A DNA stretch of 64,000 nucleotides from a virus, in IMG/VR virus record IMGVR_UViG_3300035698_016128, positions 32,001 to 96,000 of that record. The stretch is one strand, 5' to 3'. The translations under genes and the position numbers were made by a program. The number at the start of each line of letters is the position of its first letter. Position 1 is the stretch's first letter. The notes beneath the pieces were generated by a model. The model worked only from the letters and a program-made list of their open reading frames with translations, had not been told where the DNA came from and made no database searches. Shown piece by piece: positions 8,648-63,824 of the stretch.

Positions 8648-8689
8648 GATGGTTCCTCCTTTGCAGGATTCCCGGTTAAGCCGGTATCA

Positions 8690-8709
8690 GGGGGGCCGTT
8701 AAGCCCCCC
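8690..8709 (-). terminator. GC-rich hairpin downstream of major capsid gene (terminator/stabiliser)
   Basis: GGGGGGC-CGTTAA-GCCCCCC; no clear T-tract. Confidence 0.45.
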
Positions 8710-8732
8710 CAATCCATAGCACCTCCACGCCG

Positions 8733-28701: not shown

Positions 28702-28771
28702 GGTATTCCTCCTTATGAGACAAAAATACAATAGTTTGGTATACAAAGTCAACATGTCACAAACATGTCAC

Positions 28772-34405: not shown

Positions 34406-34426
34406 CTCCCATTACGTTTTGATTTA

Positions 34427-35400
34427 GTTTATCTATTTGTTGTTTATCTATTTGTTGTTTATCTGATCGCTGTGCTGTTTATGGTTGGTTATTGGGCTTT
34501 CCTTATTATGTACCACTTATGCCCTGAAAAGCCAAGGGGATGGGGAAATAATTCATTTGTTTGATTTTGAGGGGCTGAACAGGCTGGCAGGCTAGAAAGG
34601 GGCTAATGGGGTATATGAGGGCTTTGTGGGTATATATAATGATATGCGTGTGAGTGGGTGTTGAGTAAGTGTTGAATGAGTGGGAATGAGTGTGAGTGAG
34701 TGTGAATTGGTGTGAGTGAGTGTGAGTGGGGGTTGATGCGGGTATGAGGGTGTGCGGGGATTCGTCCCAAGTGACGGTTAAATGGGACAAATAGGTATGA
34801 ACCCGCCATGTTTGCCGAATTGAACTCGCATAGTGTTTATTATTCGTCCGATATGGCTACAGGTGGGGATAAATGGGGTATCTACTCGTATATACGTAAA
34901 AATGGGATGGGGTTTTTTTGGGAGGGGCAGGTTTTGTTTCAATGTGAGACCTTCGAGTGGTCTATAGGAGTTTCGTAGCGGGTTCGAGTGGTTTCGTAGC
35001 GGGTTCGAGTGGGGCAGTACAACAAGTTGTGTTTTGGTAGATCGTATACAACTTATTGTACAGAGTTACAAAACTCGGGGACGTAGGAAAATGGGGACCC
35101 CCGACACGTGGTTACGTTTTTGTAACATATGCGTATATATTTGTAACAAGTTTTCGGCAGTATTCGCACGCGGTTTTCGCATGCAAGAATTGCAATACGA
35201 AATATGTACCCACGTGCGAAAAACGTAATACGAAACCGTACCAGTACGAAAACGTAACAACATGACAGAAACGTAATCACATTACGAAAGCGTAACAACG
35301 TGACGAAAACGTAACAAGGCAGGCAGGGTGACAGCAGGCAGGCAGGGTGACAGCAGGCAGGCAGGGTGACAGCAGGCAGGCAGGGTGACAGCAGGCAGGC
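34427..35400. repeat. Non-coding low-complexity/tandem-repeat region at strand switch
   Basis: 15-bp unit x2.5 (34427-34464), GAGTGT-like run (~34645-34730), 21-bp unit x2 (34970-35011), degenerate ACGAAAACGTAAC run (~35216-35316) and 19-bp AGGCAGGCAGGGTGACAGC x4.4 (35317-35400). Confidence 0.9.
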
Positions 35401-35567
35401 AAAAAAACCCAAGTGACGAAAAACGGCGTTTCGGTGACGTATTACGTCACTTTCTTGCCTATTTTCAGGGTGCCATATTGACAGAAAAAAAGCTTGAAAA
35501 AAAACTTTCGCCTACAAGTTATTGTATTCATTACATAAAAAAAAACTTTGTACAATTTCTTGTATGT

Positions 35568-35583
35568 TGGCACACGGCATGCA
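35568..35583 (+). promoter_or_regulatory. sigma54-type -24/-12 promoter
   Basis: TGGCACACGGCATGCA: GG-N10-GC spacing; upstream of the island operon. Confidence 0.65.
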
Positions 35584-35798
35584 ATGCATAGGGTTGATTC
35601 GAACACAGCGTCACGCCAGCCCCAACTAAGTAAATGGCGAAACACAAGGCACCCGAAAGTCAAGGGTGAAAGGCAAGAAGAAAGCCTGCCGAAATAGGAA
35701 ACCGCCCTTAAGGGTGCCACTTAAAATGCGTTTCCAAAAAATTCTAGTTTTTGGCTTTGCAAGCCGTTTCCGTTTTCCTTCAGAAAGGTAGGTGCCAT

Positions 35799-36254
35799 AT
35801 GGCGAAAGCCAAAAAGCGCTTCCTGTCAATGAAGGAAATGATGTATTTTCATTTCCTTGCTATTGCAACGGCAGGGGAAAGCACCCTGAAAGCTGGGGCG
35901 CTTCTGAAGGCCTATCACGGGGGGAAAGAAACTTCCCGTGAGGTTGGCAATGTGACCGGCGAATTGTTCGCACCTGCTATCATGCTTCGGCACCTTGAAA
36001 GCTTCGGCACAGTTTCAAGCGCAGAAGCGAATGACGGCACAATCATTCGCCTGTTTGACGGCTTCGGCAAAGAAAGCTTCCGGGTTTTCTTTTCCAAGCG
36101 GGGAAAATGGGCGGGCCGCTATGGTGTTTCTGGCGCAGTGAAAAGCGCTATGGAAAACGCCCTGCCTGATTGTTCCTTTGACTGGGAACAGCAGGGCACA
36201 AAAAATTACTTCTTCTCAGGGAACAATGAAGCGCTTCTGCGCTTCGCACCCTGA
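35799..36254 (+). CDS. Hypothetical protein, paralog of 38053-38559
   Basis: AAGGTAGG RBS before ATG 35799; shares the AYHGGK, NDGT, SKRGKW and KNY(F/Y)FSGN motifs with its paralog. Confidence 0.85.
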   Translation: MAKAKKRFLSMKEMMYFHFLAIATAGESTLKAGALLKAYHGGKETSREVGNVTGELFAPAIMLRHLESFGTVSSAEANDGTIIRLFDGFGKESFRVFFSKRGKWAGRYGVSGAVKSAMENALPDCSFDWEQQGTKNYFFSGNNEALLRFAP

Positions 36255-36323
36255 CAGGCAGTAATCAACCGGGAAACGGAAACGGCTTGCAAAACCCAAA
36301 ACTAGAACAAGAAAGGGGAAACC

Positions 36324-37461
36324 ATGGAAATTTTTCTTTTTGGCTGTTTTTGGTTTAGCCTGTTTTGCAGTTTCGTCATTCTTTGCATCATGCTCAGCAA
36401 CAAGTGGTAGTAGGGGGAAACCATGTTAGAAAGCTTGCACCTTCAGTTTTTCACATTGTTCGTTGATGCTGAAGCGCTTCTGTTTTGGAAAAGGGCGTTT
36501 CAGGCTTCGGAAAGCATAACCGGGGAAAACTGGTTTGTTTTCTGAGAAAACCGGGGGGAAGGAAACTTCCCCCCCTACAATTTCTTGTAAAGGGGAAACC
36601 ATGATTTTAGGCTTCTACTTGATTGCCAACAGGCCGGTTTTCTTGATGCTCACAAACGTGGGGGAAGTTGATCAACTGTTCCAGAAAACAATATGGCTTC
36701 AGTTTGTTTGAAGCCGTCAACCGGGGGGAAGGAAACTTCCCCCCCCAGAAAGGGGAAAAAATGGAATACGAACACCCAAAAATGAGGAACAAGTTTTTTA
36801 AGTTTCTTGGTGACAGCGTGCTTGAACCACTTTTCTACAAGCTTGGCTTGTGGTACGGCTGTGATGACTGTGATGACTGCGTGAACCACTGGGTTTACAA
36901 GGTTTCCGGTTGCAAGGTGTGCACGCAAAGGAAGTGTGGCAAAATTCTTGACGCAGTGATTTGGAAGTAGGTCAACCGGGGGGAAGGAAACTTCCCCCCA
37001 AGCTTTTACAACTTCTTGCAGAAAGGAAACTGATATGACACTTGGCAAGGCAAAAAAGCCGAACGGGAAAATGTGTGCAAGGGTAGTTTCGAACGGCTTG
37101 GGTGTTGAAATAGAAGTTGGCTTGCAGAAGGCAGAAAGTGACACACTCATGGCAGTTGGCACCATTCGCCCCAAGTACAAGAATGAAGAAGCGGGCGCGT
37201 TTTTCATGACCATGCTGAAAGAATACGCTGAGGCGCACGGCATTGAATTTGATGTACAGCAATGGGAAGAATAGTCAACCGTCAACCGGGGGGAAGGAAA
37301 CTTCCCCCCAGAAAGGGGAAAGTATGAGAAAGCCTTTCAGCGCAGTACACATTTGTAACAGGTGCAAGCGCAAAGTAGTAATCATCAAACGGCACAAAGC
37401 GCTTCCGCTTCCTTACTGCTACATGTGTGGCAAGTGTTTCAAGAAGGAATACGGCACGTGA
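36324..37461 (+). other. Micro-gene array: 36324-36410 (28 aa, hydrophobic), 36423-36545 (40 aa), 36601-36711 (36 aa), 36761-36970 (69 aa, Cys-rich), 37035-37274 (79 aa), 37324-37461 (45 aa, CxxC...CxxC)
   Basis: Each is preceded by a purine-rich RBS (mostly AGGGGAAA; AAAGGAAA at 37035) and all are co-oriented; translated manually. Confidence 0.7.
36549..37309 (+). repeat. Four copies of an intergenic hairpin (GTC)AACC-GGGGGGAAG-GAAA-CTTCCCCCC
   Basis: Copies at 36549-36574, 36716-36744, 36971-36999 and 37281-37309; perfect 9-bp stem with a GAAA loop. Confidence 0.95.
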
Positions 37462-37551
37462 ACGGCTTTGAAGGGGGAAGGCGGGTGCAAGCCTGCTTTC
37501 CCCTTTTAACACGCTCAAACAGGCGCACAGGCGCACGCACGTGGAAGGAAC

Positions 37552-37594
37552 GGGGAAGGGGAAGCCAAGCGCTTTCCTTTCCCCCCTTTTTTTT
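37552..37594 (+). terminator. Rho-independent terminator closing the island operon
   Basis: GGGGAAGGGGAAGC...GCTTTCCTTTCCCC stem followed by T8. Confidence 0.8.
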
Positions 37595-38052
37595 GTGCCA
37601 AGCAGGGCGTGCGTGACCGCCATACGACCCCGATATCTGTTTAAGCGCCGGTGGATCCTTTGATTTGTGGATCACTACGTGACGACCCCTCGTAGGTTAA
37701 GCGCTGGTGGATCCTTTGAAGTACCAAAGCACTCTCAATCAATCGCTGAGGAATAGACCTATACCTGTGCCTATACGTAGACGTGGAAGAACCGGAAGGG
37801 TCGGGAAATATAAGCGAGTAGGAGGCGAGCGAGTTGATCGTACTCCCCACAGAGTCGAACCCCTTCGCCTACCCGATATCCCTGGAACCCTATCGGTTAC
37901 GAAAAGAGTTACTAACCCCCGAGCAGGGAGAAGACCTCCACCCCTCCCCGGTCCACGAGCGGTGGATCCTTTGGCCTTTCCAAAAGGAACCCCCTATCCA
38001 ACCATAAGCCGGAGTAGGGGGTTCGTACTACACGATATTCGGTACTACCGGA

Positions 38053-38559
38053 CTACGCGCCTAAGTAGCGCATGAGAGCTGCGGTATTCCCGGAGAAGTA
38101 GTAGTTCTTACTTTCGGACTGACGTACCCAACCGAACTCATCGTTGGTATTGACCGCTTCAATCTGCGTGCGTGCCTTACCCGACACACCGAACTGCCCC
38201 GACCATTTGCCCCTTTTCGACAGGAAGAACCGGAATGCTTCGGACCCGCAGTTATCAAAGACGCGAACCACCGTACCATCGTTGCATTCCGCTTCCGTGA
38301 ACCTGAGATCAGCAGCGCTCATGACCGACGCCACAATGGCGCTTCCGAGGAGTTTGCCAGTAGGACCGTCAACTGCCCTTTCGGTATCCTTCCCACCGTG
38401 GTACGCGGAGTTGAACATTCTGGCGGTCACATCCTCCGGGGTCATTTCCGGGATGACCGGCGCTTCGGGTTCAACGATGGGTTCCACCGGGGCGATGATG
38501 ACTTCTTCCGCCTTCGGGGATACTGCCTTCTTCCGCCTGATCGTTTTCTTGGTTCCCAT
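38053..38559 (-). CDS. Hypothetical protein, paralog of 35799-36254
   Basis: GGAG RBS before ATG 38559 (MGTKKTIRRKK...); aligned by eye with 35799-36254. Confidence 0.85.
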   Translation of the reverse strand: MGTKKTIRRKKAVSPKAEEVIIAPVEPIVEPEAPVIPEMTPEDVTARMFNSAYHGGKDTERAVDGPTGKLLGSAIVASVMSAADLRFTEAECNDGTVVRVFDNCGSEAFRFFLSKRGKWSGQFGVSGKARTQIEAVNTNDEFGWVRQSESKNYYFSGNTAALMRYLGA

Positions 38560-38622
38560 TTTGAATCTCCTTTCAGAAGGGTTTTGAGTCCCACCACACC
38601 ACGTGGTGGTACCCGTATATAC

Positions 38623-38638
38623 TGCAAGTCGCGTGCCT
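38623..38638 (-). promoter_or_regulatory. sigma54-type promoter
   Basis: AGGCACGCGACTTGCA, ~65 nt upstream of ATG 38559. Confidence 0.7.
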
Positions 38639-39026
38639 AACAAGGGCATCGGAAATAAAAAAAAAAGGTGGTCGTTTCAGGTACTTACAACTCCGCCCAA
38701 AACCGTCGTTCAACGAGTGGGTAAAATAGTGCCGTTTTTGGGCTCTTTGGTGACAATTTGCGCCGGAGTACCAAGAGTTACGATATCGTACTCGTATAGT
38801 TACAAGAGTGTAACTGGTTACATTATCGTACTCGGCAGTTACAGGAGCGTAACAGGATATCCCAGTTACAAAAACGTAACTAGAGTTACATAATCGTAAC
38901 AGGATGTCCCCCGAGGCAGGTTGCTCCTGGTGGATCCTTTGGATATCGGGACGACGAAGATATCCCCAAGGTGGGAATATAGCTGTGGATCAGTTAAGAT
39001 CTACCGACTCACACAATCATCTTATC

Positions 39027-40101
39027 TTATTTGACGGCCTTCAAGCCGGTTCTTCTCTTCTCCTTGTATTCAATCACCAGCTCGCGTTCAACATCCTCCA
39101 TCACATGACGCATACGCTCGGCGGCGCGAGTCAACACTTTGTCGACCTCATAGGCTACAGAGCGATCGCCGTGCACGAAGGCTTTCTCGGAAGCCACATA
39201 CTCCAGGTCGTGGCCCAACTGCTTAACGAGCGCGTTAATGAAAGCTTTCATCGTATCTCCTTCCTACAGGCTCAGCCAACGATGCATCAGGTTAAGATGC
39301 AGTACGCCGAAGAACGACACTTCGCTTGCCATGTTAAGAGTTGCGGGCGGAAGAGTCTGCCCATCATAGAAGTTCCCAAGGGATAACAAATCGTACATGT
39401 GAAGGTAGAACATAGGATTTAGTTCCTTCCCCTAAGGATGTTTCTGATTTCCTCACGATTCTCAATGCCAAGAGTTTCATCACTCAACAGCTGGATGCGC
39501 AGTTCCTTCAGCGACACCCACAGCGCTTCGAGAACGTCAGGCTCAACGATTGACCTGTACCCCAGAGGCTCATCACCAACTTCGTCGATCAGCGGGGCCA
39601 AGACAGTTTGCAGTGACTCAGCGAGTTGACCAACCAGCCGATACTTGTCAAGCTTGTTGAGCGAGTTGATGTGAGGAAGATCAATTTTCAGCTTTTTCAT
39701 TACGACTCCTCCCTACTGGGTTACCAGCGTCATGCCGACGTTGTCACATTCCATGCAAAAGAGGTTGCATGCATCAGCGATAGGAATGTCATACGATACA
39801 AGGTGAACCTCACCGCAGACATTACACTTGAACCGACGCGCACCCTTCCTCAGCAGATAACCAAGCAACTTAGACATGATTCCCCCTACTGGCCGATGCA
39901 AACGTTAAGATTGACGTAGCCCGCTTCCCGCAGATTGATCAGGGCCGTGTTCAACGACCCATCAGTGCGATAGTCACGTGCCTTCACAGCCGATGCAGCC
40001 CACGATGTGGTGATTTCCGATAAGCCTGTTCGCCTGACTGACCAGACGAACCCGTGTAAAGGATGCTGAATGGTTCTGCGATACATGCGCTTCTTTCCCA
40101 T
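39027..40101 (-). other. Small hypothetical CDSs (39027-39251, 39419-39700, 39713-39901 Zn-ribbon, 39886-40101)
   Basis: Co-oriented, with RBS-like sites, downstream of the promoter at 40159. Confidence 0.65.
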
Positions 40102-40158
40102 GGCGATTCCTTTCCTTTCTGGTTGACGATAGTTGCCTTTGCCTTCACCCTATATATA

Positions 40159-40174
40159 TGCAAGTCGCATGCCT
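40159..40174 (-). promoter_or_regulatory. sigma54-type promoter
   Basis: AGGCATGCGACTTGCA upstream of ATG 40101. Confidence 0.7.
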
Positions 40175-40737
40175 AGAAATAGGCGTCGTACGACATCGTA
40201 TGGACATCGCTAGACAACGAGTTGGAAAACAATTACTATCCATGGGCAATAATTGTCACTCATGTGACTCTTTACGCATATCGGTCATTAATCGCATATA
40301 TATAAGGATATCCACACGATGATCTACATAAGAGTAGAGTATCTGTATATAAGGGCGTCTTCGAGTATAAAAGTGCAAGTATCTGTATAAAGAGTGGGAG
40401 TTGGCAAACAATGAAGTGATGTCCTTTAAGAGCGTTTATATACGAGTTATAGAGTTAAGATATACGAGTTATAGAGTTAAGAGAAGGGAGTTATACAACA
40501 TTTGGTAACGATCTCAGTTTCTTGTAAAACTCACGATCTATATATAATATCTATGATATTAGCTTGGATAAAAGCATCGCCCATATAACATCCCCCTGAG
40601 AGTAAACAAGTAAGGAGCTTATCCATACATCGTAAGGAGAACGATATCCCCCAGTCAGAATATAGCTGTGGATCAGTTGATAACAAGCTCTCTATAATAA
40701 TATATATATAAGAGAGTCTAAATGTATCTTACCGTAA

Positions 40738-43700
40738 CTACTTAGGCAGATACGCCTTACAGTCGTTGTGCTTATTACGATCAAGGAAGGTTCTTGTCTG
40801 TATCCATACCCTTTCCTCCCTGACCGGGGTGCGTACCAGCTCCCAGTAACCGCAGTGCTTATCGAGCACACACTCCTGATGTAACCCCCTGAAGAGGGTT
40901 CTGAACCTACTACACTCTGAACAAAAGACCTTATCAGGCATAGTGTATCCCCTTCTACTAGCGTTAATACATCTCCCCCTATATGGCTACTTCCAACACC
41001 GACGGAAAAGGAAGGGATGGGATATTATTATATATATAGTATATAGAGGGACGAGTAGAGTTTAGAGTTTAGAGTTTACATATCGAATGGGAAAGGCGAC
41101 CCCTTACCCTTACTCTTACTCTCCATCTTCGGGGTAGCCTTCTTCCTTCTCGCCTTCTTCGCCAGCGGCCTCGGGGGGGTAGTAGCGATATATTCCTTCT
41201 TCTTCGGCTTCGGGGGCGGAGTAACGATATATGCTAGCTCTACCGCTACGTCCTCGAGAGTAAGAAGAATCTCTATATCGCTCTCGCTGATAAGGAAGAT
41301 ATTACCGTCGAGCGTTCTTATAATAACCTCCCGCTCGGTACCGCCAAGAAGAAACGGCGTTTCGACTTCGAACATCTGGTTCGTATATTCCTCGGGGAAG
41401 TAATTCGGTAACCCTCCCATAAGGCTCCACTTGATAGTCGTAACTCGGGGAAGGTTAAACCCCGCGTCGTTACGTATACATCCCTTTAACATACCGTAGG
41501 TCTTACGAGCGTTATGCAAATCCATAACTTCTCCTCTTTCTGTGAAAGGTGTACCGAATCTATCGTCCTTACTTAACTCCGCGATAAGGTTCTTTCTTTC
41601 TCTACCTCGGAAGACCGGGTTAGTATCGCCCTCCTTTAATTGATTTATGAACCTAGAGCTTGCCCCTCTCACACCGCACCTCCTTCCAGCGGCATCTCGG
41701 TAAGACTCGCCAGTACCCGTTCCTTGGCGTTCGGGAACTCCATGGCGTAAGCCGGATTGGTAGTACCCAGTTCATAGATCGAGCCTGAGAAGGTGACGAC
41801 CATACCATCACGCTTACCGATGATCTTGGAAGAGCGTACTTCAAGACCGTTAAGGTTAGCACGTGGGTGATCAACGGGGACACCGAGAAGATGTGAGGAA
41901 ATGAGTTCGGGGGCCATATACGGACTCGTCTGCCCGACTATGATTGCCCAGTTGTTGATCGTAATCGGTTTAACTTTATCTGCCATTACGCACCTCCTTC
42001 TAGACTTTGACCAGCCCGAGCCGACCCGGCTCAACCATTGTCATCTTGTTGAGTTCAGCCATTGCCTCTTCCAAAGAAGTAAAGACACGAGCCGCCTCAA
42101 TATGTTCGACCCAGCGACGAATACCGTCACGAGTCTCAAAGTACCACAGGGTACCGACCGGCGATGACATACTAATGTGATGCTCCACCTCACACCTCCT
42201 TAGAAAGGACAATCGCCCTTACAGGGCTGATCATCACAGTCCTTGTCTTCGTTCTCGTAATCGTACGGTTCAAGCCCACAACCTTCGCGAGCCCGATTAC
42301 ATTCAGCCATTGCCTCTGTTTCCTGACCAGCGATGAATGTCTCCCACCGCATACCTCCCATACTGCACCTCCCTTCTTACGAGCGGTTATCGGAACGACT
42401 CAAGTTACGGCTTGCGTAAAGGTTATCCATAAGCTGATCGCAAACATCCATCGGCGCGGACTTGTACAATTCGGAAACCCGCTGGCTGAGGATGCTTGTG
42501 TACTCCGCATCTATACCGTGATGCTTGATGCAGACACAGCCACGCTTGACGATAATGTAGTGCTGGCGCTCGCTGACCTTCCACTCTGCCTTGCACACGA
42601 AACAAACGACAGGTTTACCCATCTTTAATCTCCTTCTTGGCCTTGTACCACTCGTTGTATTCCTCCCGTTGAGGACACCAGCGCATGTGGGGGTTGCTTT
42701 CAGGTCGCCCGTTCATAGTCCAAGCATACCCTCCGCAAGTACAGTAATGCTTAAAGCTCTTTAATGCCTCCGCCTCTGCCCTTGTCACCCTAGTCATCCT
42801 CCACTGTGCTGACCTTGATCTGGTTAACAGCCTTCATGTTGGTCTGAAGGTTCTTGATCACATCCCTATGGTGCTCGAAGACCAGATTCTTGGCGGCTCC
42901 AAGAGTCTTCTGTGCGTTGTGATACTCCGGGTTACCTTCCTTAACCCTGAAGATCCAACTACATGAGCCATCAACGAGGGCGAGATACCTTGCTACTGCC
43001 ATCACTTCACCTCCTTGGCCAATCGCAGAAGAGCAGTTTAACATAGGAGGACATGATGTACACCGACTCAGGTATCCACGTTACACCATCAGCGCAGAGT
43101 ACAAGAAAGTATGGTGCGACGTACAATCCCTTGACGATCACGCCCCCATTGTCCTCATAGTAATGAGTTGGAGTCAACATTCCCTTCTCCTTATCTTACT
43201 TCTTGTGCGGTTGCAAGACTGTACTCACTGAAGTAGAGGATGAAGCACCCATGTTTGGTGTTCATATCTTCCAGGATGTCATCCGTAACTTCCGTCTGTC
43301 CAACGTTGAAGTCATAACAGCAGGAGTTCAGCCACCAATCGTAGAATGTAAGCCAGAACATAATTGCCTCCGTCTAAAGTAGTTTTCCACAAAGAGCCAT
43401 TAACCGCTGAGCAATATCGAGATGTTCGGCTTGCTGTGCCTCTGTGAACGGAGTGCCATTGATTTCAGCCAACCGAATAATCTCACTGGCGGAACCAAGA
43501 AATGATTTCTCCCAAAAGGCCATTTCTTCTTTGATCGGTACAGGCTCGTCTGCCTGTTTGACCATAGCCCTGATCGCATCTTTAGTAGGCATGGTATAGA
43601 ATGGAGCACCCAAGTTGATACACTCCCCATCGCTGTTCTCAACATCATAGTAGTCGATGATACCTTCAGGTGTCTCCGAGTCCCAACACCCATAGACGTA

Positions 43701-43755
43701 ATACGTCATATTGTCAATGAAATAGACAGTGGTTATCTCGCTTCCCGTTTTCATT
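40738..43755 (-). other. Operon of small hypothetical CDSs (40738-40941, 41076-41672, 41669-41986, 42000-42180, 42377-42622, 42615-42797, 42790-43002, 43191-43361, 43374-43755)
   Basis: Packed minus-strand ORFs, several with AAGGAGGTG RBSs; several Cys-rich. Some start coordinates are approximate. Confidence 0.65.
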
Positions 43756-43794
43756 TTCCTATCTCCTTTTCTGGTTGGTGTTACCCTTATTAGT

Positions 43795-43810
43795 TGCAAG
43801 TCGTATGCCA
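43795..43810 (-). promoter_or_regulatory. sigma54-type promoter
   Basis: TGGCATACGACTTGCA. Confidence 0.8.
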
Positions 43811-44114
43811 AGCAAAAACCCGTCTATAGACTATGCGATAGGTGTCTGCTTCTCGGTCCATAGGTAATTGTTTTCTTCTTTTGGGTAATCCCTTACCCAC
43901 TCGTTTTACCATACGACAACATAGCCTTCCCTATCGGCTATCTCCACCAATGTATCCCAGTTATCTTCGACCCACTTGGTGTGCTTATCGCACGAGTCCT
44001 TTTCAAACTTCCTGATGCGCTCTGCAACACGCCCACCTGCCTCATCCATATCTATTACATTTGACTCGTCCATAATGTGGCTCTCCTTTCAAGTGTTGGT
44101 TCACCATTATATGA

Positions 44115-44130
44115 TGCAAGTCGTATGCCA
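44115..44130 (-). promoter_or_regulatory. sigma54-type promoter
   Basis: TGGCATACGACTTGCA, identical to the one at 43795. Confidence 0.8.
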
Positions 44131-44479
44131 ACACTTGGCGACGGTCTTAGATATATATGAGTAATCCACGGAGCTCTATGGTGACGAAATACGGCACCCG
44201 ATGACGCAAATTGTCACCGGGGCCGTCAGACAGTCTAAGGTAGGATGTTATGTAAGAGCCCTGACTCTACGCCTTCTTGACCTTGCCGGTTCCCGGGACA
44301 GAGGCCGCCGCACGAGCACGCTTCATGCCACGCGGAGCATTGGGGTTCTTCTGTCCGGTGTTGCGGTTCTTCGAGCAGTTGCTCCGTGCGCCACACGCAT
44401 CGTAACACGCCTTAACCCTGAATCCTGTACAAGCCATCTCATCTTCTCCTTCGTACCTTCTTGGGTTTAATCCGGTTGG

Positions 44480-44839
44480 CTACAGCGCTTTGTCATCCAC
44501 CTCCAACGAAGGGTGCTTGCCTTTGGCCGACCGCAACGTGAAGTTGAACTCGCTTGCCATGATACCGACCTGCTTCGCCGTGAGGGTGAAGATTCTTCCG
44601 TCATCCAACGTGCCACGAATGGTCTCGACAGTCTTGGCATTGTGAACAACGAAGATGTTGACGATTTTGCCACCGCCAACAACTTCCGGCAGAGGCGGAG
44701 CGGGTTCGGGTACCTTCTCAACGAGTATGCCGGTCCACTGCTTGCCACACTCAGGGCAAGTATGGACCGCCGAAATCTCACCACCACAGCGGTAGCAAGT
44801 CTGCTCGTCGGCCTTCTTGTGGCAGTATGGACATTCCAT
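44480..44839 (-). CDS. Zinc-ribbon hypothetical protein
   Basis: Three CxxC pairs at the N-terminus; GAGGAGG RBS. Confidence 0.7.
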   Translation of the reverse strand: MECPYCHKKADEQTCYRCGGEISAVHTCPECGKQWTGILVEKVPEPAPPLPEVVGGGKIVNIFVVHNAKTVETIRGTLDDGRIFTLTAKQVGIMASEFNFTLRSAKGKHPSLEVDDKAL

Positions 44840-44903
44840 ACGCTTTCCTCCTCATGTTGTGCTACGTTCACGATTTGTAACCCTGCCTTCAGCAGTTAGT
44901 ATA

Positions 44904-44919
44904 TGCGAATCGCATGCCA
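44904..44919 (-). promoter_or_regulatory. sigma54-type promoter
   Basis: TGGCATGCGATTCGCA. Confidence 0.7.
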
Positions 44920-45414
44920 AGCTAAATAGACTACGTAGACACGTCTTTGTATACCAAGGGATATCGGTACGATAAATTATATAGGAACCTCCTTACCCAA
45001 TATGTGAAACTCTTTTCCCACTCGTTCGCCGACCAATAGATATCGTACCATATATATCTTTATACAAGCAAGATCCCAATACGATATCCCCCAGTCAGGT
45101 TTATACTGTGGATCAGTTAATACCTAACGATAAAGAAAGATAATCTAATTAGATAACGATATCCCCAGGTCAGTTTATTGCTGTGGATTATTAGATATCG
45201 CTTGATAGAATAAAAAAGGAGACTTCAACCGCCACAGGGTCATAATAAGAGTCAGAAAGGATAACACCCTCTTACTATGAAGCGAAAACGTGTCGGCTAA
45301 AGTCCCCTATACAACTCACATGCACCGGCGACGCGCTAGAACTTTGCATAAAGTCCCGGCAGCATGAGGATGCTCACCTATGAACGAAGCCACCCACCTC
45401 CTTGATTGTTTATC

Positions 45415-45651
45415 CTACAACATCCACCCCTTGGGGGTCAAGTTCTTCTGAAGGACAACCTCATATGATACCCTGTTGATGAACAAGGACAGAACAGTCC
45501 ACCTGGGCCTTGATTGATACGCCACCGACACCCCATGCTTGAAGTCACGGTGGATTGTAACCTGCTTCCTGTTGCTGGTCAGGTGGACAGTGATATGATT
45601 CCTACCGCTCGAACCCAAGCGGTATCTTCTTATATGCAAATTCAATTCCAT
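45415..45651 (-). CDS. Hypothetical protein
   Basis: 78 aa, GGAG RBS, just downstream of the promoter at 45684. Confidence 0.6.
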   Translation of the reverse strand: MELNLHIRRYRLGSSGRNHITVHLTSNRKQVTIHRDFKHGVSVAYQSRPRWTVLSLFINRVSYEVVLQKNLTPKGWML

Positions 45652-45683
45652 CTCCTTTTCGCTGTGCTGTTACAGGTTAGTAC

Positions 45684-45699
45684 TGCAAACGGTATGCCA
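45684..45699 (-). promoter_or_regulatory. sigma54-type promoter (divergent pair, leftward)
   Basis: TGGCATACCGTTTGCA. Confidence 0.75.
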
Positions 45700-46087
45700 A
45701 CCTAACAAAGTCGCACCCGACCCTATATATATATCGTATTACATCCATAGACATCGTTTATCGCACCCTTTTGCTCAGTTATATGTACTCTAGGAAAACT
45801 TTTACCCACCTCTATACCATCGTAGTTGCATCTACCTAGTCTATTCAGGTACTTACGCCACTTAACGAGTGGGTAAAGAGTTTCACATAATAAGTAATAC
45901 CTTACCCAATACGACATCGCAATAGTATCTTTCAACACCACTTAGAGTATTTACCTATGCTAACGACTCACCTTTCAACACCCTTTTTAATCTTTTAATA
46001 CAATTTATTGTCTAAAAATACATATTCTTGTATCCAACTAATCTTTTTTACACTCTACAAGTCTTTGTAATTGTCTTTCCTTAACGA

Positions 46088-46103
46088 TGGCACATGTTTT
46101 GCA
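46088..46103 (+). promoter_or_regulatory. sigma54-type promoter (divergent pair, rightward)
   Basis: TGGCACATGTTTTGCA. Confidence 0.75.
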
Positions 46104-46159
46104 CCTACTACCTTATAACAACACACACGTACAAGGCGAGTTCAGAAAGGAAAGATGAT

Positions 46160-47416
46160 ATGCCTGAGAAAGATTTGGTAGTTGACCTTGTTGTCGTATA
46201 CCACATAAACTCTGTGTTCAATGAGGACGGAGAAGAAGGGTTATCGAGGGTAGCTGAATGGATTGGCAAAACCAAGCTTAACCCGAAGACAATGTTCAGC
46301 ATCTCATCCAGCATGTTCAGCAAGCACACAGCTCAGCTCTCCATACGGGGTACAATCAAAGAGTCTAAGTTGCAACGCTTCACCGATATAATTCTCAATG
46401 CTCGGTGCTTCGGCACTACCACTGACGCTCGTTGGCGGTATGCCAACACATCCGAATGGAATGACCTGTAAAGGAGCCGATATGCCAAAGCTTGAGTTCA
46501 ATCTTGATGAGGTAGGCACAATCATATCGTTGGTGAGCAGGAATCTGTATGGCATTGACGATAGTAATGTCCGTGAGAAGCAACGGAGTGAAGATATTCT
46601 TCGCAAGATAAGCAAAGTAATCAGCAAACCCATAAAGAAAGGATGTGAACCATGCCAATCATCACCGAAGTAACCGACGCAATCATGAAGATGAGCATTG
46701 AAGATCTCATGGCTGTGCGCAAATGCGTGACGCACAGACACGAAGCTCTCTCGAACGAGAAACGTTATTCCTTCCGAAGCGGTACACGTGTCGAATGGGT
46801 TGGCCCGAAGTCCGGTTACAACAAAGGCACCATCAAGAGGCGCAACCCCAAGACCGCTACCATCGACGCTGACGGAAACGGCGAATGGCGTGTCCCCTAC
46901 CACATGCTCACCGCTATCGGCGCAGAGGCGTAATCATGGGTGACGGATAGCAAGGAAATTCATGTGAAAAAATGGATGCGCAAGGGCATCAACGCCCTAC
47001 AAGCAAGCTCTTGCCGTGTATGGGAATTCGACATTGGTGAGGTCCCCATAAAGCGGTACGCTACACCGGACTCGTTCACTACGAAGGAAGCACGGCTAGA
47101 TTTGTGGATGGGCAACATGATGTGGCAACTCAAAGATCACCACGGCACGAAGATCAACGGAGAACAAGCACGACAGATCATGTTTGAGTATATGTCGTCA
47201 GAATTTTACGAGAAAGTTAATGCCAAGTTCCATCGTAAGAAGGTGGTACCCAAGGAGAAACCGAGGCTGACCTCTAAGGATGTTGGCTGGCTTGCGGAGA
47301 CAGCACCACCTCCACCCGAAGATAAAACCACACCACTACGTAGACCAGTACATAAACCAAATCGCAAACCTGTTCGTAAGCCTACAAGAGTACCAATGAG
47401 GAAGGCCATCGAATGA
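46160..47416 (+). other. Small hypothetical CDSs (~46160-46471, 46480-46673, 46652-46933, 46940-47416)
   Basis: Co-oriented ORFs with RBS-like sites; 46652 has an SH3/KOW-like pattern. Confidence 0.65.
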
Positions 47417-47521
47417 CGAGTGAGAAAACTTTTACTATCTACTGGAAACAATGTACCGCTTATGGTATGCAGGTTGCCCATCTAACGGGCCTTAGACGCC
47501 ATCTAAGGCGTCTGAACGTAT

Positions 47522-47537
47522 TGGCATGGGCATTGCA
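47522..47537 (+). promoter_or_regulatory. sigma54-type promoter
   Basis: TGGCATGGGCATTGCA, 40 nt before ATG 47578. Confidence 0.75.
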
Positions 47538-47577
47538 CTAAATACTAATAAAAAGGGCGCACACAGGGGGAAACGAT

Positions 47578-47778
47578 ATGTTTTGGGTTAATTTTTACGA
47601 CTGGTTCCTTATCTCATTCGGCACAGAAGTTTACGGTGTCGGTAATGACACCACTCTTTACTTCCTTGACAGCATCGATGAAGAATGTCTCGGTGAATTT
47701 GCCGACCTGTATATGACATACACCGGATATAGCGCTGAAGAATGTGTAGACGAATTCATTGGAGTGCAAAATGGCTAA
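47578..47778 (+). CDS. Small acidic aromatic protein (MFWxxFYDW family)
   Basis: Paralog of 43191-43361. Confidence 0.7.
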   Translation: MFWVNFYDWFLISFGTEVYGVGNDTTLYFLDSIDEECLGEFADLYMTYTGYSAEECVDEFIGVQNG

Positions 47779-48499
47779 GGGAAGCGACAGGGTATTTCTT
47801 CGTGCCGAAGCACTTGATATCTTCGATGAAGTGCATGGCGCATTAACCGCAGACGGCATGGTCGTTAAGGCTACGGCTTGTGGTTCGATCAGGCGTGGCA
47901 AGATGATGGTCAACGACCTTGATGTGGTTGTGGTATCGTGCTATGATAATGCCACACCCATCTGGGAGACGATAGCCACAAACCTGTGGGAACCTACCGA
48001 ACGGCTTACCTGTGGCCCAGTCGAATTCAAGTTCAAATACAAGGGACTTCAAATTGATCTGAGAAATTTCCTTCCCGAACAAGAAGGAGCCGGACTACTG
48101 TTCAGTACAGGCAATGCCATGTTCAACATCTCAATGCGCAGTAGGGCTAAGGTGGTCGGCGACAAGAGGGGCGAAACCTTCAAGCTTAACAGGTACGGCG
48201 TCCAATTAATCAAAGGTGGCATTGACGAGAACGTCACCTTTGGCTTCAGCGAGTCAGGTATATTCGGCTTCCTCGGTATGCCATTCGTTGAACCTGCCGA
48301 CAGAAGCTTGGCTGAATACGAAATGCACAGAGCCGACTCACACTCCATACCAATTGAAAACAGCAAAGGAACTGGAGTCTACAATGTGGTGCTGTCTGGG
48401 GGCAAGCTCTCCTGTCCGTGTAAAGGCTTCACATTCCGAGGTAAGTGCCGTCATGTAACCGAGGCACGTGCAATGGTCGATAACATACCCGAAGGGTGA
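47771..48499 (+). CDS. Minimal family X DNA polymerase (palm+thumb) fused to SWIM-type Zn finger
   Basis: PolX motifs CGSIRRGK, NDLDVVV, QIDL, LLFSTGN.MFN.SMR, KLNRYG and ESGIFGFLGMPFVEPADR; C-terminal SCPCKGFTFRGKCRH. Confidence 0.85.
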   Translation: MAKGSDRVFLRAEALDIFDEVHGALTADGMVVKATACGSIRRGKMMVNDLDVVVVSCYDNATPIWETIATNLWEPTERLTCGPVEFKFKYKGLQIDLRNFLPEQEGAGLLFSTGNAMFNISMRSRAKVVGDKRGETFKLNRYGVQLIKGGIDENVTFGFSESGIFGFLGMPFVEPADRSLAEYEMHRADSHSIPIENSKGTGVYNVVLSGGKLSCPCKGFTFRGKCRHVTEARAMVDNIPEG

Positions 48500-48502
48500 G
48501 AC

Positions 48503-49198
48503 ATGGACGATAGGAAAGAAAAGATATTAGATAGAATGAAGAAGCAGGGCAAGCCACAAGATGATACGCTTGTGTCGAAGGAAGACCTTGTGATGTGGTA
48601 CTCAACAGCAATCGAACATGTGCTACGGTCTAACCAAGATATGTTGGCAAGCATAGCAGAAAGACTTGCCAAGCAGTACCCTAATATCTTCTGCGAACTG
48701 GCTGAGTATGACGATGAGGAAGAGAGCGAGAACAACGAAGTATTTAATCTAACTGATGCGGTCAGCCAAGAAGTTGCATCTCATCTTAGACGTGGCGAAA
48801 GTGAAAATGTAATAACTATCCTCATGAGGTTAGGTCGCACGAGAGATGAAGCAATAAAATTTATGGAGAAATATACAGGCAGAATGTTAAGAGGATATGT
48901 TGGCCCAAAGAAAACAAAGGAAGATGAAAACATTCCATTTTAAGGAGATGATATGCCTACCAAGGCGAAGCAAAGAGATTACATAGAAGATGAGGCAGTG
49001 CCATGTATAGTGATCGGGTATGACTTCGCATGCCGAGAGGAGAGAACCTTTCCCGAATGGTACGACAGCACTCAGCCCGACATGCTTGATGCCTTCTTCT
49101 TCAACACAATCTTGATCGACCCAAATGATAACTCGAAGTATTACATCGTACAGTCAATTGACATGGAGTTTAAAACCACCAACGAACAAGGAGAATGA
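48503..49198 (+). other. Hypothetical CDSs (48503-48943, 48953-49198)
   Basis: Co-oriented with RBS-like sites. Confidence 0.65.
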
Positions 49199-49201
49199 AT
49201 C

Positions 49202-49474
49202 ATGGGACAAGGTTATGATCCGAAGCAGAACAAAGTGTTGAAGGAAGTCGAAGCAGGTGAAAGCCTCTTCATCACCGTGAACTCCTACAAGGATGGCGAA
49301 CCCAAGATCCAGATCGCCCGCACCTACCTCAAGAAGGATGAGACACGCGGGTACGGCAAAACAGGTCGGCTCACCGTCACGGAATACGAAGACCTGTGCG
49401 GGGCCATGGAGGAAGTGCTTGACGGGATCGAACGCACCCCGGCTCCCAAGAAAAAGAAGAAGAAGGGCAAGTGA
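49202..49474 (+). CDS. PC4/YdbC-like ssDNA-binding protein
   Basis: ITVNSYKDGEPKIQIAR...GKTGRLTVTEYEDL matches the PC4 fold pattern. Confidence 0.7.
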   Translation: MGQGYDPKQNKVLKEVEAGESLFITVNSYKDGEPKIQIARTYLKKDETRGYGKTGRLTVTEYEDLCGAMEEVLDGIERTPAPKKKKKKGK

Positions 49475-49579
49475 TGTACTCGGTGCTAGATAGGGAAAAA
49501 TGCTTCCACTCTATGGTAAGTAATTGCCCTATCAAAGCGCCGAAGATGTACAATACAGCATCTATAGACGGTTTCCGAG

Positions 49580-49595
49580 TGGCATGCTGTTTGCA
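49580..49595 (+). promoter_or_regulatory. sigma54-type promoter
   Basis: TGGCATGCTGTTTGCA, 41 nt before ATG 49637. Confidence 0.75.
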
Positions 49596-49636
49596 TTACT
49601 TAATGGTACACGCACAGCACCAGAAAGGATAAGCAA

Positions 49637-51367
49637 ATGAATTGTGATAGAAGCGGGGCCACTCCGGTAACGAACCCGGCGCTCCTAGGAATATGGGAAC
49701 AAATCCAGAATGAAGATGAACAAAGAACCAAGGAAGAGAAAACGGAAACTGACATACTCAAACCAATCTTCATGGAATACATCTTAGCAATACAAATCAG
49801 CGAAGATCGCACATGTGTTTCGCTTGCCTTTGCTACATTAATCGGGGCCATGCGCAGTCTAATCGCACCACCATTACGTAATAGGGTAGCGAGCGTCGTA
49901 ACAAGCGATAGAGCATATCAGGCTATGGTAGCCACACTCGACAACACCCAATGCAAGGAGAACAGAGATGGCGAGCAAGAAGAAGGGTAAGAAGAACTCA
50001 GTCTCCGGTACCAAGAAGGAGCTGAAGAAGAAGCTGTCGAAGCCCCAGGACATCAGCCTCAAGAAGAGCGCACCCGAAACGAAGCCGGAGAAGGCTCCGA
50101 AGGGCGAGCCGGGAACCAAGCGGATTCCACTCAGGAAGGTGAAGGCCAGCGATACGGCTTCCTTCCGCGACCGTGCCTACAACGGACCCAACGTGGTCAG
50201 GCGCACCGTTGGCTCCACCCTCGAAGGCAAGGCCCGCGAGAAGTTGGAAAACACGGTGTTCATGGAGGAACTGCGCAATCGTTTCGCCGACGCAAAGCGG
50301 TGCATCATGACCTGTGCCGACAATGCGAACGGCCTGATCTGGCGCTTCTTCCTCGTGGGAACTGACAAGAACATCCGGTTCTGCACCGACGCCACCTTCT
50401 CCAAGGGCATTGGCATGGGCAACCCGACGTGGACCGGCAAGAAGAAGACCACTGGTGGCTTCGGCTGTGTCGACTACGTTTCGGGCGACGGCGTGATTCC
50501 CCAGAGGAACAAGCCGGAGAGCTACCGTTACATCCCGTCAACGGAAGCGAACCTCGAAGGCGTGACGGAATTCATGGAGGCAATGGGGTTCGAGCGCATT
50601 GTGGCCGACTGACAACCCAAACACCCAACATACACGGAGGGCAAGGTAATGGCAGGAGAAAAGAGATTCGTCCCCATTGATTTGATCGAAGAAGAATGGG
50701 AAACCGTGAACATCGGCATGACCAAGCACATGGGTTGTATCACGACCCCCACCATTTTCTGGACGAAAAGCAAGAGAAACAGGTACAGCCTCACGCTCAT
50801 GGGCGACCTTCCGTTCCAGACGGGCGAAATGGTCACCTTCAGGGTGAAGAGAGCCCCGGCTGACGGCAAGGCTGTCGCCATTATGATCACACCGGGAGAC
50901 GGTGTACACGAGAAACGGCTGACGCTCAACACAACCGACCGCAATTCGCGGACCCGCAAGCACAGAATCTCGTGCAAGGAATTGTGGGAGGCGACCCGAC
51001 CCCCCGCTGGCCTTCGCATTGAAGGAGTTTCTGGCCTGACCGGGGAAAACCCCACCATCATCTTCATGTTGTAAGCATCTGTGGGTATTCTCACGAATAC
51101 CCACGGACCTTAACACATGAGGAGGGAAGAATGTCTAAGCCAAAATTTACGATGAGAAAATACATGGGTGATGATAAACTCTCATGGGCTGTGTTCAAGG
51201 ACGGCAGAGCATACATAACAGGGCTGTCAAGGAACATGGCCTCTTACTACAAGAAGCAAGAGGAAGCAAAGTACGACGCGCCCATACAGAGGAAGCCACA
51301 CGCAAGGGCTACCGAAATCCATAAGGATAAAACAAAATATGACCGCAAGAGAAAAGATCGTAGTTAG
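49637..51367 (+). other. Hypothetical CDSs (49637-49990, 49968-50612, 50649-51074, 51131-51367)
   Basis: Co-oriented with RBS-like sites. Confidence 0.65.
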
Positions 51368-52099: not shown

Positions 52100-52128
52100 T
52101 TGACCACGATTTGACCCCCTTGTATCAT
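52100..52128 (+). promoter_or_regulatory. sigma70-type promoter
   Basis: TTGACC-17 nt-TATCAT. Confidence 0.6.
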
Positions 52129-52165
52129 ATAAGTATGGGAAAAACCACACTGAAAGGAGTTGAGA

Positions 52166-57805: not shown

Positions 57806-57834
57806 TTGACCCCGATAAGGCGAAATGTTATGCT
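57806..57834 (+). promoter_or_regulatory. sigma70-type promoter with extended -10
   Basis: TTGACC-17 nt-TATGCT, with TGn before the -10. Confidence 0.6.
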
Positions 57835-59485: not shown

Positions 59486-59514
59486 TTGACCGGGATTTTT
59501 GGGCCTTGTAATAT
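59486..59514 (+). promoter_or_regulatory. sigma70-type promoter
   Basis: TTGACC-17 nt-TAATAT, upstream of the AAA+ gene. Confidence 0.7.
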
Positions 59515-59566: not shown

Positions 59567-60646
59567 ATGACAGAGAAGAAACACAAAAAGAAGAAGAAGG
59601 CTCCTGAAGAAGGGGAAGAGTATTTCTTCGGTAATGCGCGTCTGGTAAAGCGTGACCGGAAGAATTACGGCTCGTGTGCCTGGAAGGGTGCCTGCAAGGT
59701 TGATCCGAAGTGTGACGGCAAAGATGAGGAATGCGAAGACTTCGAAAGCATTCAGCCGTTCATTCCCCCGATCGATGAACACTATAACCTTAACCTTGAG
59801 ATCGGCGAAACCATTGCCTTTGCTCTTGCTGACGAAAACAGGCACAACATCCTGCTGGTTGGCCCTCCTGGGTGCGGTAAGTCTTCGCTGGTCATGATGA
59901 TCGGGGCAATCACTGATTGGGAAGTCATGCGCTTCTCTTGCTCTGAGGAAACACGGCAGTCACAGGTTATCGGCCAATGGATTGTGGTGGGTGACAAGAT
60001 GCGGTGGGTTGACGGCTACGTCACCGATGCGCTTCGGCAGGGCAAAATCCTTCTTGAGGATGAAGCTGACTTCATGCGTCCTGAACTGCGTGGCGCTCTC
60101 CACCCACTGCTTGAGAAGGATGGTACCATCACCCTTCAGGGGTACCATCCGAAAACAGGGGAACCTTTCCTCGAAGTGGTTGACCGTCATCCGAATTTCC
60201 GGTGGGTCTCCACAGCCAACACCACAGGGCTTGGCGATGATTCCTTCATGTATCACGGGACTCAGTTCATGAATGCCGCCGCTCGCGACCGTTATGCGGT
60301 GATCATCCCCATGAATTACCTGAGCGTCGAGGAAGAAACTGAGATTCTGGTCAACAAGACCAAAACGGAAACTTCAATAGCTGAGTCGATGAGCAAAACG
60401 GCACACGCAATCCGCGAAGTGTTCGAACAGCAGAAGGTCCAGTACCAGTTCAGTATGCGCCGTCTGCTTGCGTGGGCTGACTACCACAACTTCTACAAAG
60501 ACCGCAAGCCCTCGGAGGCCGTGAGGCTTGCCATTCTGTCGTTCGCCCGGGATGATGACATTCAGCAACTCGTTGATCTGATTCGGCTCAACATGGGCGC
60601 TGACTTCATCGAAGGTATCAACCGGTCGGCCAAGGGGGTGAGATAA
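59567..60646 (+). CDS. MoxR/CbbQ/CobS-type AAA+ ATPase
   Basis: Walker A GPPGCGKS, Walker B LLEDEAD, and HPNFRWVSTANT...NAAARDRY. Confidence 0.92.
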   Translation: MTEKKHKKKKKAPEEGEEYFFGNARLVKRDRKNYGSCAWKGACKVDPKCDGKDEECEDFESIQPFIPPIDEHYNLNLEIGETIAFALADENRHNILLVGPPGCGKSSLVMMIGAITDWEVMRFSCSEETRQSQVIGQWIVVGDKMRWVDGYVTDALRQGKILLEDEADFMRPELRGALHPLLEKDGTITLQGYHPKTGEPFLEVVDRHPNFRWVSTANTTGLGDDSFMYHGTQFMNAAARDRYAVIIPMNYLSVEEETEILVNKTKTETSIAESMSKTAHAIREVFEQQKVQYQFSMRRLLAWADYHNFYKDRKPSEAVRLAILSFARDDDIQQLVDLIRLNMGADFIEGINRSAKGVR

Positions 60647-63182: not shown

Positions 63183-63824
63183 ATGAAAAAGTATGAAGAC
63201 TTCATTGCCTTAGCAACACCGATAATAAGACAAGAGGCAAGGCGGTTCAGCAAACGAATTCAAAGTCATGATGTTGAAGATCTTGAGCAAGAAATAAAGT
63301 TTAAGATTTGGCGAAGTTTTGACACCATTGATTTGGATAAATATCCCCCAAAGGCTGTTGCGAGAAATATCGCTGTGCAGACGTGCTTGCGAATATACGG
63401 ACGTAAGCCGAAGGAAATTGGCAGTATCAAATTGGAAGAGAACTTTTGGGGGACAAGTGGTTTTGCCAGCATCGAAGTAAGACACTTATCAGATAAACCA
63501 CATGCGGATGCCGTCATACGGGAAGAGGACTTTACCTGCACGGCAGGTACAGCGGAAGTCGAAGTCTGTGACCTACTGGCTACGCTGTCACCACAACTAA
63601 GCGATGTAGCGCATACCGTTCTACGCATCCGGCTTGATCCCCCGCAGGGTTTGATTTCAAAGGCATGCCGTGGTATGCTTGAAACTAAGAAGACCAGCAG
63701 GGACAGGTCTACCTTTCGCATAACAAATAAAATGTTCAGCGACTACCTTGGCCTAACAAGGTACCGCTATGCTGTTGCTCTTGAAGAGATAAGAGAAAAG
63801 CTTGGGGCGCTAGGAGAATTGTGA
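63183..63824 (+). CDS. Sigma70 region-2-like protein (phage sigma factor/regulator)
   Basis: PIIRQEARRF...DVEDLEQEIKFKIWRSF resembles ECF sigma region 2. Confidence 0.6.
   Translation: MKKYEDFIALATPIIRQEARRFSKRIQSHDVEDLEQEIKFKIWRSFDTIDLDKYPPKAVARNIAVQTCLRIYGRKPKEIGSIKLEENFWGTSGFASIEVRHLSDKPHADAVIREEDFTCTAGTAEVEVCDLLATLSPQLSDVAHTVLRIRLDPPQGLISKACRGMLETKKTSRDRSTFRITNKMFSDYLGLTRYRYAVALEEIREKLGALGEL

Follow-up and report, generated by a model that had tools for sequence, protein, structure and literature searches.

How is a cluster of small ORFan genes in an uncultured phage switched on, if the promoters that head it belong to a class whose transcription stays silent until an ATPase activator fires? 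This question is raised by the IMG/VR virus record IMGVR_UViG_3300035698_016128, a viral contig of 124,119 bp (CheckV completeness 75%), of which bases 32001-96000 were analyzed; this stretch of 64,000 nucleotides is referred to here as the window, and coordinates are those of the window unless contig positions are given. The virus is a tailed phage, with a major head protein, a portal, a large terminase and a 1415-aa tape measure among its identified genes. An initial annotation described ten sigma-54-type (-24/-12) promoters between 35568 and 49595, and proposed that they place early genes under the control of a host bacterial enhancer-binding protein (bEBP) or of an unrecognized phage activator, in a host that would be a sigma-54-rich bacterium. 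Our analysis indicates that these are probably genuine sigma-54 promoters, used via the host RpoN holoenzyme together with a trans-acting AAA+ activator. The "early" timing of the genes is an assumption of that annotation, and sigma-70-type promoters sit in the adjacent replication arm.

A cluster of near-consensus -24/-12 sites

The pattern WGGCA-N6-WYGCA occurs 12 times in the window, compared with 1.39 ± 1.21 occurrences in 100 dinucleotide shuffles, among which the maximum was 6 matches and none (0/100) reached 12. Ten of the 12 matches lie at precisely the coordinates and on the strands that had been annotated. The remaining two, at 2847(-) and 18775(-), fall within late structural genes and have weak -12 halves (CACGCA and CTCGCA, respectively), so that the earlier remark that none was noticed in the structural genes is not quite exact. 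When the entire contig was scanned with consensus-weighted scoring, 14 sites scored at least 14 of 15, and ten of these best 14 were the cluster sites. All ten are intergenic, although intergenic DNA accounts for only 9.4% of the contig by our own gene calls. Each is co-oriented with a Shine-Dalgarno ribosome-binding site and an ATG start codon 32-64 nt downstream (215 nt for the site at 35568), as had been described, and the spacing from GG to GC is exactly 10 nt in all ten. The cluster spans 14 kb and about 45 small ORFan genes, arranged in units of 1-10 genes behind each site; the first gene of each of the ten units has no match in Pfam or PHROG.

Alignment of the sites on the motif shows information concentrated in T-TGGCAY-R-N4-TTGCA, with variable spacers and flanks. 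The sigma-54 consensus takes the form TGGCACG-N4-TTGCW, and a published version reads TGGCAC-N5-7-TTGCT (PMC12316311). Positions that were left free in the search pattern nevertheless follow this consensus: a pyrimidine at -21 and a purine at -20 are present in 10/10 sites each, as is an A directly after the GC (-11), while a T precedes TGGCA in 8/10. Downstream of TTGCA, a TA at +6/+7 and a G-G-T at +10 to +12 are conserved, and the predicted melting stretch is AT-rich. The position of the G-G-T puts purines 11-12 nt past the C of the GC, at the start position of sigma-54 transcripts. Because spacer and flanking bases differ among the sites, conservation of the core is not merely a result of recent duplication. 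No strong match to -35/-10 elements 16-18 bp apart was found at the sites, and the region 34000-51000 holds 25 weak matches where 20.6 are expected. Geometry, orientation, clustering and extended consensus all fit, and as far as sequence goes they support the assignment of the sites to the sigma-54 type, in agreement with the initial annotation.

One further perfect match, TGGCACGCTTTTTGCA, lies outside the window at contig positions 30195-30210 (-), 1805 nt before the window start. It stands in sense orientation inside the gene for a 383-aa tail protein, just downstream of the tape measure, and might represent a sigma-54 promoter within that gene or have arisen by chance (about 0.06 matches expected).

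Organization of the ten units

At the left end of the cluster, the site 35568..35583 (+; TGGCAC..ATGCA) heads, behind its long leader, the gene 35799-36254 and a series of micro-genes extending to about 37274. A paralog of that gene, 38053-38559, is headed by the site 38623..38638 (-; AGGCACG-N4-TTGCA). Five further sites lie on the minus strand: 40159..40174 (-) heads a five-gene unit running from 40101 down to 39027; 43795..43810 (-; TGGCATACGACTTGCA) heads a ten-gene unit from 43754 down to 41076; 44115..44130 (-), with the same core as the preceding site, heads 43906-44073; 44904..44919 (-), with the -12 half TTCGCA, heads 44480-44839 and 44267-44437; and 45684..45699 (-) heads the open reading frame (ORF) 45415-45651. 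The last of these is the divergent partner of 46088..46103 (+; TGGCAC-N5-TTGCA), which heads four genes at 46160-47416. Two more plus-strand sites complete the set: 47522..47537 (+) heads five genes at 47578-49474, including that of a PolX-like nucleotidyltransferase, and 49580..49595 (+) heads the genes from 49637 onward, to a radical S-adenosylmethionine (SAM) enzyme gene ending at 52091.

The unit behind the 35568 site has features of its own. Inverted repeats of 37 nt (35742-35778 and 36271-36307, 92% complementary) stand on both sides of the 151-aa gene 35799-36254; the arrangement could be an invertible or mobile mini-element. Between the micro-genes further downstream, 4-5 copies of a GGGGGGAAGGAAACTTCCCCCC hairpin are present at 36544-37309.

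Other promoter classes and transcription factors of the phage

In addition to the PolX-like and radical SAM enzymes, the plus-strand arm encodes a CobS/CobT-like pair and a sigma factor resembling the extracytoplasmic function (ECF) type; past the window it continues with DnaB, primase, a thymidylate-synthase-like enzyme, NrdJ and a DnaE-type polymerase. Large ORFs of the phage encode the tape measure, fibre, portal and similar proteins. The replication arm carries canonical, mutually similar sigma-70-type promoters of the form TTGACC-N17-TAnnnT (gcTTGACCnnGAT...TGTAtnAT) at 52100-52128, 57806-57834 and 59486-59514 (+), located before the genes starting at 52165, 57915 and 59567 (CobS-like). 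Others were found at 45412(-), before a very short ORF only, and at 28723(-). Their presence elsewhere in the phage implies that two promoter classes coexist and that the sigma-70 consensus of the host is ordinary.

The divergent ECF-like factor of the sigma-70 family (63183..63824, +), which stands outside the sigma-54 system, matches the ECF superfamily model over regions 2-4, with an E value of 8e-6 for TIGR02937, below the family cut-off, and shows weak similarity to a Rhodopirellula/Verrucomicrobium subfamily. Being ECF-like, it should read -35/-10 promoters and not two boxes 11 bp apart, and it probably serves another promoter class. The only sizeable AAA+ protein of the contig is a CobS/MoxR-type ATPase (59567..60646, +), which is not bEBP-like and lacks GAFTGA. 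Its PDB matches are midasin, CobS, CbbQ and NorQ. For RNA polymerases of the T7 type, no PF00940 match was obtained in the contig, with a profile for which the control genomes cannot give a positive.

Repeated elements upstream of the promoters

Two of the promoters are preceded by tandem arrays of palindromes. The strict form TTAC-N6-GTAA occurs 7 times (0.64 expected), with 6/7 copies within two arrays, and the relaxed form occurs 24 times (4 expected), nearly always in the same two arrays and with a period of 19-20 nt. One array, at 38777..38900, consists of six GTTAC-N6-GTA(A)C palindromes whose period is about 20 nt; it lies 139-262 nt upstream of the 38623(-) site and is a candidate enhancer. 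The other, at 35111..35315, has about six GTTAC-N6-GTAAC palindromes whose period is 19 nt; it lies 253-457 nt upstream of the 35568(+) site and may represent an enhancer or iterons. The two promoters equipped in this way are those that head the pair of paralogous genes. The arrangement resembles activator-binding enhancers and makes both arrays candidates for that role.

A second element, the non-palindromic 14-nt box AACGAGTGGGWAAA, has 23 matches when up to 3 mismatches are allowed (9 expected). At up to 2 mismatches it occurs 8 times: 6/8 copies lie in intergenic DNA of the cluster and 2/8 in coding sequence (42643- and 53674+). The six intergenic boxes are located 42-107 nt (one 165/211 nt) upstream of 6-7 promoters, in either orientation. 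They are AACGAGTGGGTAAA at 38712..38725 (+), 74 nt upstream of the 38623(-) site; AACGAGTTGGAAAA at 40216..40229 (+), 42 nt upstream of 40159(-); AACGAGTGGGTAAG at 43892..43905 (-), 82 nt upstream of 43795(-) and overlapping a perfect GGGTAA-N4-TTACCC palindrome; AACGAGTGGGAAAA at 45013..45026 (-), 94 nt upstream of 44904(-); a second copy of AACGAGTGGGTAAA at 45864..45877 (+), between the two divergent sites, 165 nt away from 45684(-) and 211 nt away from 46088(+); and GACGAGTGAGAAAA at 47415..47428 (+), 94 nt upstream of 47522(+). The pattern GGGTA-N6-TACCC is not enriched in general (25 occurrences, 18.6 expected), with one perfect copy.

Closer to the core, the short palindromes GTCTATAGAC, GTCGTACGAC, ATCTATAGAC, CTACGTAG and TTGTACAA end 10-14 nt upstream of TGGCA at no fewer than five promoters. 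GTCTATAGAC occupies 43822..43831, ending 11 nt upstream of TGGCA, GTCGTACGAC occupies 40185-40194 and ATCTATAGAC occupies 49560-49569; similar ones stand before the 44904 and 35568 sites. These promoter-proximal palindromes are possible operators for a dimeric regulator.

Other repeats populate the non-coding DNA of the region. A 1.1-kb non-coding hub (34400-35560), bordered by the start of the late minus-strand operon on one side and by the 35568 promoter on the other, is full of tandem repeats. Units of 10 nt and 21 nt recur at 34673-34742 and 34953-35025, respectively; GTTAC-type palindromes of 19 nt are present at 35201-35318 and five 19-nt AGGCAGGCAGGGTGACAGC units at 35317-35411, and near 35437 there is a GTGACGTA-T-TACGTCAC palindrome. 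The hub looks like a replication origin or a regulatory hub. Furthermore, a 46-nt element (..ACGATATCCCCCAGTCAG..CTGTGGATCAGTT..) is present in four plus-strand copies (38954-38999, 40637-40682, 45077-45122 and 45152-45197), in extended gaps without coding sequence, at distances of 160-460 nt upstream of sigma-54 sites on the minus strand; members of a related family, GGTGGATCCTTTG, stand at 37629, 37685, 37940 and 38908. The unusually long AT-rich stretches 40175-41075 (900 nt) and 44920-45415 (500 nt) contain no convincing ORF and may encode non-coding RNAs; a search of Rfam returned nothing relevant.

Similar arrays in other viral contigs

A scan of IMG/VR with one 16-mer returned 53 contigs, several of which have the relaxed motif in arrays that fit within a few kb: these are G007 and its relatives L024, L053 and L059, and also L056 and L022. 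G007 is a 51-kb, 90%-complete phage of GC 0.62 with a head protein, a primase and helicases, from a family with a GC content of 0.62-0.63; its 4-5 sites lie at 46087-48185(-), each directly before a ribosome-binding site and ATG. As in the present phage, the arrays of these contigs are clusters of near-consensus -24/-12 sites just before the ribosome-binding site and ATG of small genes, whereas they differ in GC content, in the sequence that follows the core and in their upstream elements. No tblastx similarity was detected between the array-bearing contigs and this phage, only the sigma-54 core being common to them; the upstream boxes described above were not found beside the sigma-54 sites of the other viral contigs, and none of five other array-bearing viral contigs encodes a bEBP. 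Unrelated contigs that share the core alone and lack a bEBP are what common use of a host factor predicts.

Two details of these contigs concern regulatory genes. The G007 array adjoins, divergently, the gene of an AAA_5 MoxR-type ATPase with a 424-aa partner (L095:6087-8185 and 8659-9600); the link between this ATPase and the CobS/CobT-like pair of the present phage is probably coincidental. In an unrelated IMG/VR contig of 122,738 bp and GC 0.41 (L008), a consensus sigma-54 site at 5204-5219 (+), with an AT-rich stretch behind it, stands before a gene that encodes a protein with a sigma-70 region-2-like motif; this would place a sigma-54 promoter ahead of a phage sigma factor gene.

Proposed mechanism and alternative explanations

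What the sequence shows is the motif with its statistics and geometry, together with the lack of RpoN, bEBP and phage RNA polymerase genes in the contig; we infer that the sites depend on RpoN, and likewise where transcription starts, which activator is used, where it comes from and when the genes are expressed. If the ten sites are sigma-54 promoters served by the host, host RNA polymerase carrying host sigma-54, presumed present in the host, would bind them as a closed complex, which an AAA+ enhancer-binding ATPase would remodel by hydrolysing ATP, allowing transcription from the conserved G-G-T about 11-12 nt past the GC. The most likely source of this activator would be one or more host bEBPs; with no activator encoded in 124 kb, a host bEBP is probable. 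The GTTAC-N6-GTAAC arrays and the AACGAGTGGGWAAA box upstream might recruit some bEBPs, and others might act from solution on near-consensus, strongly binding promoters. The approximately 45 small ORFan genes would then constitute a regulon apart from the sigma-70-driven replication arm, gated by the physiological state of the host, while a third promoter class would presumably be driven by the ECF-like sigma factor.

Several results weigh against this explanation or limit its reach. The contig contains no match to the sigma-54 activator domain (Sigma54_activat, PF00158) or the RpoN DNA-binding domain (Sigma54_DBD, PF04552), and no GAFTGA, ESGTGKE, WPGNVREL or RpoN-box peptide in any frame of its 124 kb; the earlier statement that the window holds no GAFTGA-type activator thus extends to the entire contig, as does the outcome for RpoN, although these absences cover 124 kb only, about 25% of the phage genome, some 40 kb, being missing. 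The consensus for integration host factor (IHF) has one match in the window and none in the cluster. At most promoters the upstream boxes are unlike classical bEBP palindromes, and the palindrome arrays, standing in repeat-rich DNA, could equally be iterons; the 35111..35315 array in particular, which lies inside the 1.1-kb hub among other iterons, could belong to an origin. Tandem GTTAC palindromes were not found in 401 genomes of one candidate host phylum, Thermodesulfobacteriota. Searches for relatives gave no close ones: megablast of the region against cultured phages revealed no close cultured relatives, two early-region proteins searched against IMG/VR gave no match, the protein of 49968-50612 had a 110-nt mosaic as its sole match in a metagenome scan, and the excess of sigma-54 sites is absent from the records sharing the terminase, whose relatives reach only 37-53% identity.

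The activator might instead be encoded by the phage, either as a minimal bEBP in the missing ~25% of the genome or as an unconventional protein without GAFTGA (an ORFan or the CobS/MoxR-type ATPase), in which case the programme would be self-timed and not gated by host state. We consider this unlikely. It is favored by the incompleteness of the contig (75%), by the occurrence of an AAA_5 MoxR-type ATPase in both this phage and the unrelated G007, and by the AAA+ protein Htm of a T4-like phage, which is bEBP-like, lacks GAFTGA and has been proposed to act on the sigma-54 holoenzyme, E-sigma54 (preprint 10.64898/2026.10.06.757011). The same absence of PF00158 and of the GAFTGA, ESGTGKE and WPGNVREL peptides argues against such a protein, as do the five other array-bearing contigs without a bEBP and the matches of the CobS-like ATPase to midasin, CobS, CbbQ and NorQ rather than to bEBPs. 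CobS/CobT pairs are also common in large phages that are not known to have sigma-54 sites, which again counts against a phage activator. Distinctly unlikely, in our view, is a system in which the ~45 accessory or early genes would be transcribed via host E-sigma54 under an enhancer grammar of their own (GTTAC arrays, AACGAGTGGGWAAA and proximal palindromes) with a phage-encoded, non-GAFTGA activator or co-activator; if real, this activator would represent a viral means of opening sigma-54 closed complexes.

A phage-specific system mimicking the RpoN consensus, based on the ECF-like sigma factor, a phage-modified host polymerase or an unrecognized phage RNA polymerase, could draw on the sigma-70-family factor encoded at 63183-63824 and on the nine conserved promoters of Pseudomonas aeruginosa phage YuA, which are thought to require phage factors (PMC10914365). 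Moreover, several minus-strand sites hold ATACGACT, followed by an AT-rich stretch and GGG/GGT. The ATACGACT sequence is also present in the T7 promoter. We nevertheless judge such a system very unlikely: ECF and other sigma-70-family factors read -35/-10 elements 16-18 bp apart and not boxes 11 bp apart, the contig gives no PF00940 match and its large ORFs are otherwise assigned, every strongly conserved core position is a sigma-54 consensus position, and unrelated phages have only that core in common. Least probable of all is an operator or repeat without a promoter role, whether bound by a repressor or partition-type protein at two TKGCA half-sites one helical turn apart or acting as a recombination boundary between cassettes. 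TGGCA and TTGCA do form a near-direct repeat with an 11-bp offset, in a region rich in other repeat families and short palindromes; yet the sites point strictly the same way as the genes and keep a narrow distance of 32-64 nt to start codons, as suits a promoter, the ten units have no other promoter candidate, and the match reaches sigma-54-specific flanking positions. A cassette-boundary role would in any case be compatible with promoter function.

If the ten sites are indeed sigma-54 promoters fired by a host activator, the ORFan genes behind them, whether they serve host take-over or are accessory, would have their expression tied to a signal of the host, for example its nutrient state, envelope stress or RNA damage. 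Genes driven by sigma-54 would also be immune to any shut-off of sigma-70 transcription.

Host

The identity of the host is suggested by weak hints only, from NrdJ and the ECF-like sigma factor. NrdJ is ~50% identical to homologues from delta-proteobacterial and Thermodesulfobacteriota metagenome-assembled genomes, and equally to homologues from archaea, Chloroflexi and Spirochaetota. The terminase profile detected no related prophage in 185k genomes, and five genomes searched for the combination of upstream activating sequence and promoter yielded nothing useful. Both the strong Shine-Dalgarno sites and the resemblance of the sigma-70 promoters to those of E. coli would argue against a host from the Bacteroidota.

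Comparison with known sigma-54 systems

In the textbook cases, phage programmes are built on sigma-70 promoters or on sigma factors or polymerases of the phage, and experimental documentation of sigma-54 use by phages is confined to very few, namely a few promoters of YuA, whose rpoN dependence has reportedly been tested genetically. YuA requires sigma-70 as well as sigma-54 (PMC10914365), and in the virion and lysis region its GenBank record (NC_010116) marks three fragments from a promoter trap with the label "high activity, -24/-12 consensus"; compared with the record sequence, these sites match the consensus only loosely. Like the 124-kb contig of the present phage, YuA carries no RNA polymerase or RpoN of its own and encodes no activator, and it uses host sigma-54 for some promoters, as the present phage probably does. 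The two differ in that YuA has three loose sites in its virion and lysis region, whereas here ten near-consensus sites, known from the sequence alone, occupy a 14-kb ORFan region, head every unit of it and are accompanied by repeated upstream elements. A full-text literature search identified no paper on a phage region whose transcription is driven by a sigma-54 promoter array, and the initial description of such programmes as rarely described was a fair one. YuA is therefore the precedent for phage sigma-54 promoters, and what is new here is a near-consensus array of ten sites over an ORFan region. Together with the unrelated arrays found in other contigs, it suggests a widespread, undescribed strategy among uncultured phages.

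With the classical enhancer-dependent promoters glnAp2 (NtrC), nifH (NifA) and pspA (PspF), the ten sites share the GG-N10-GC geometry, the TGGCAC(G)-N4-TTGCW core and the lack of -35/-10 elements; tandem palindromes 140-460 nt upstream, which may be activator sites, also recall those systems, here at two promoters only. In the classical architecture, activator sites are repeated, usually palindromic, located about 80-300+ bp upstream and common to promoters that are regulated together. Unlike the classical promoters, they are located on a virus, have no adjoining gene for a cognate bEBP and no IHF consensus, carry mostly a non-palindromic 14-nt box instead of paired palindromes, and display an unusually conserved AT-rich stretch from -10 to -1 with a G-G-T at the predicted start.

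A bEBP need not bind DNA at each promoter that it activates. Natural bEBPs without a DNA-binding domain include FlgR of Helicobacter and CtcC of Chlamydia. DctD250, reduced to the AAA+ core of a bEBP and lacking a DNA-binding domain, can fire diverse sigma-54 promoters in Salmonella with no enhancer involved, although about ten-fold more weakly than a cognate enhancer-bound activator does (PMC3844500). Activation of the DctD250 type would offer a way to fire many phage promoters that have no classical upstream activating sequence in common, and near-consensus promoters such as these would form the stable closed complexes that it would use.

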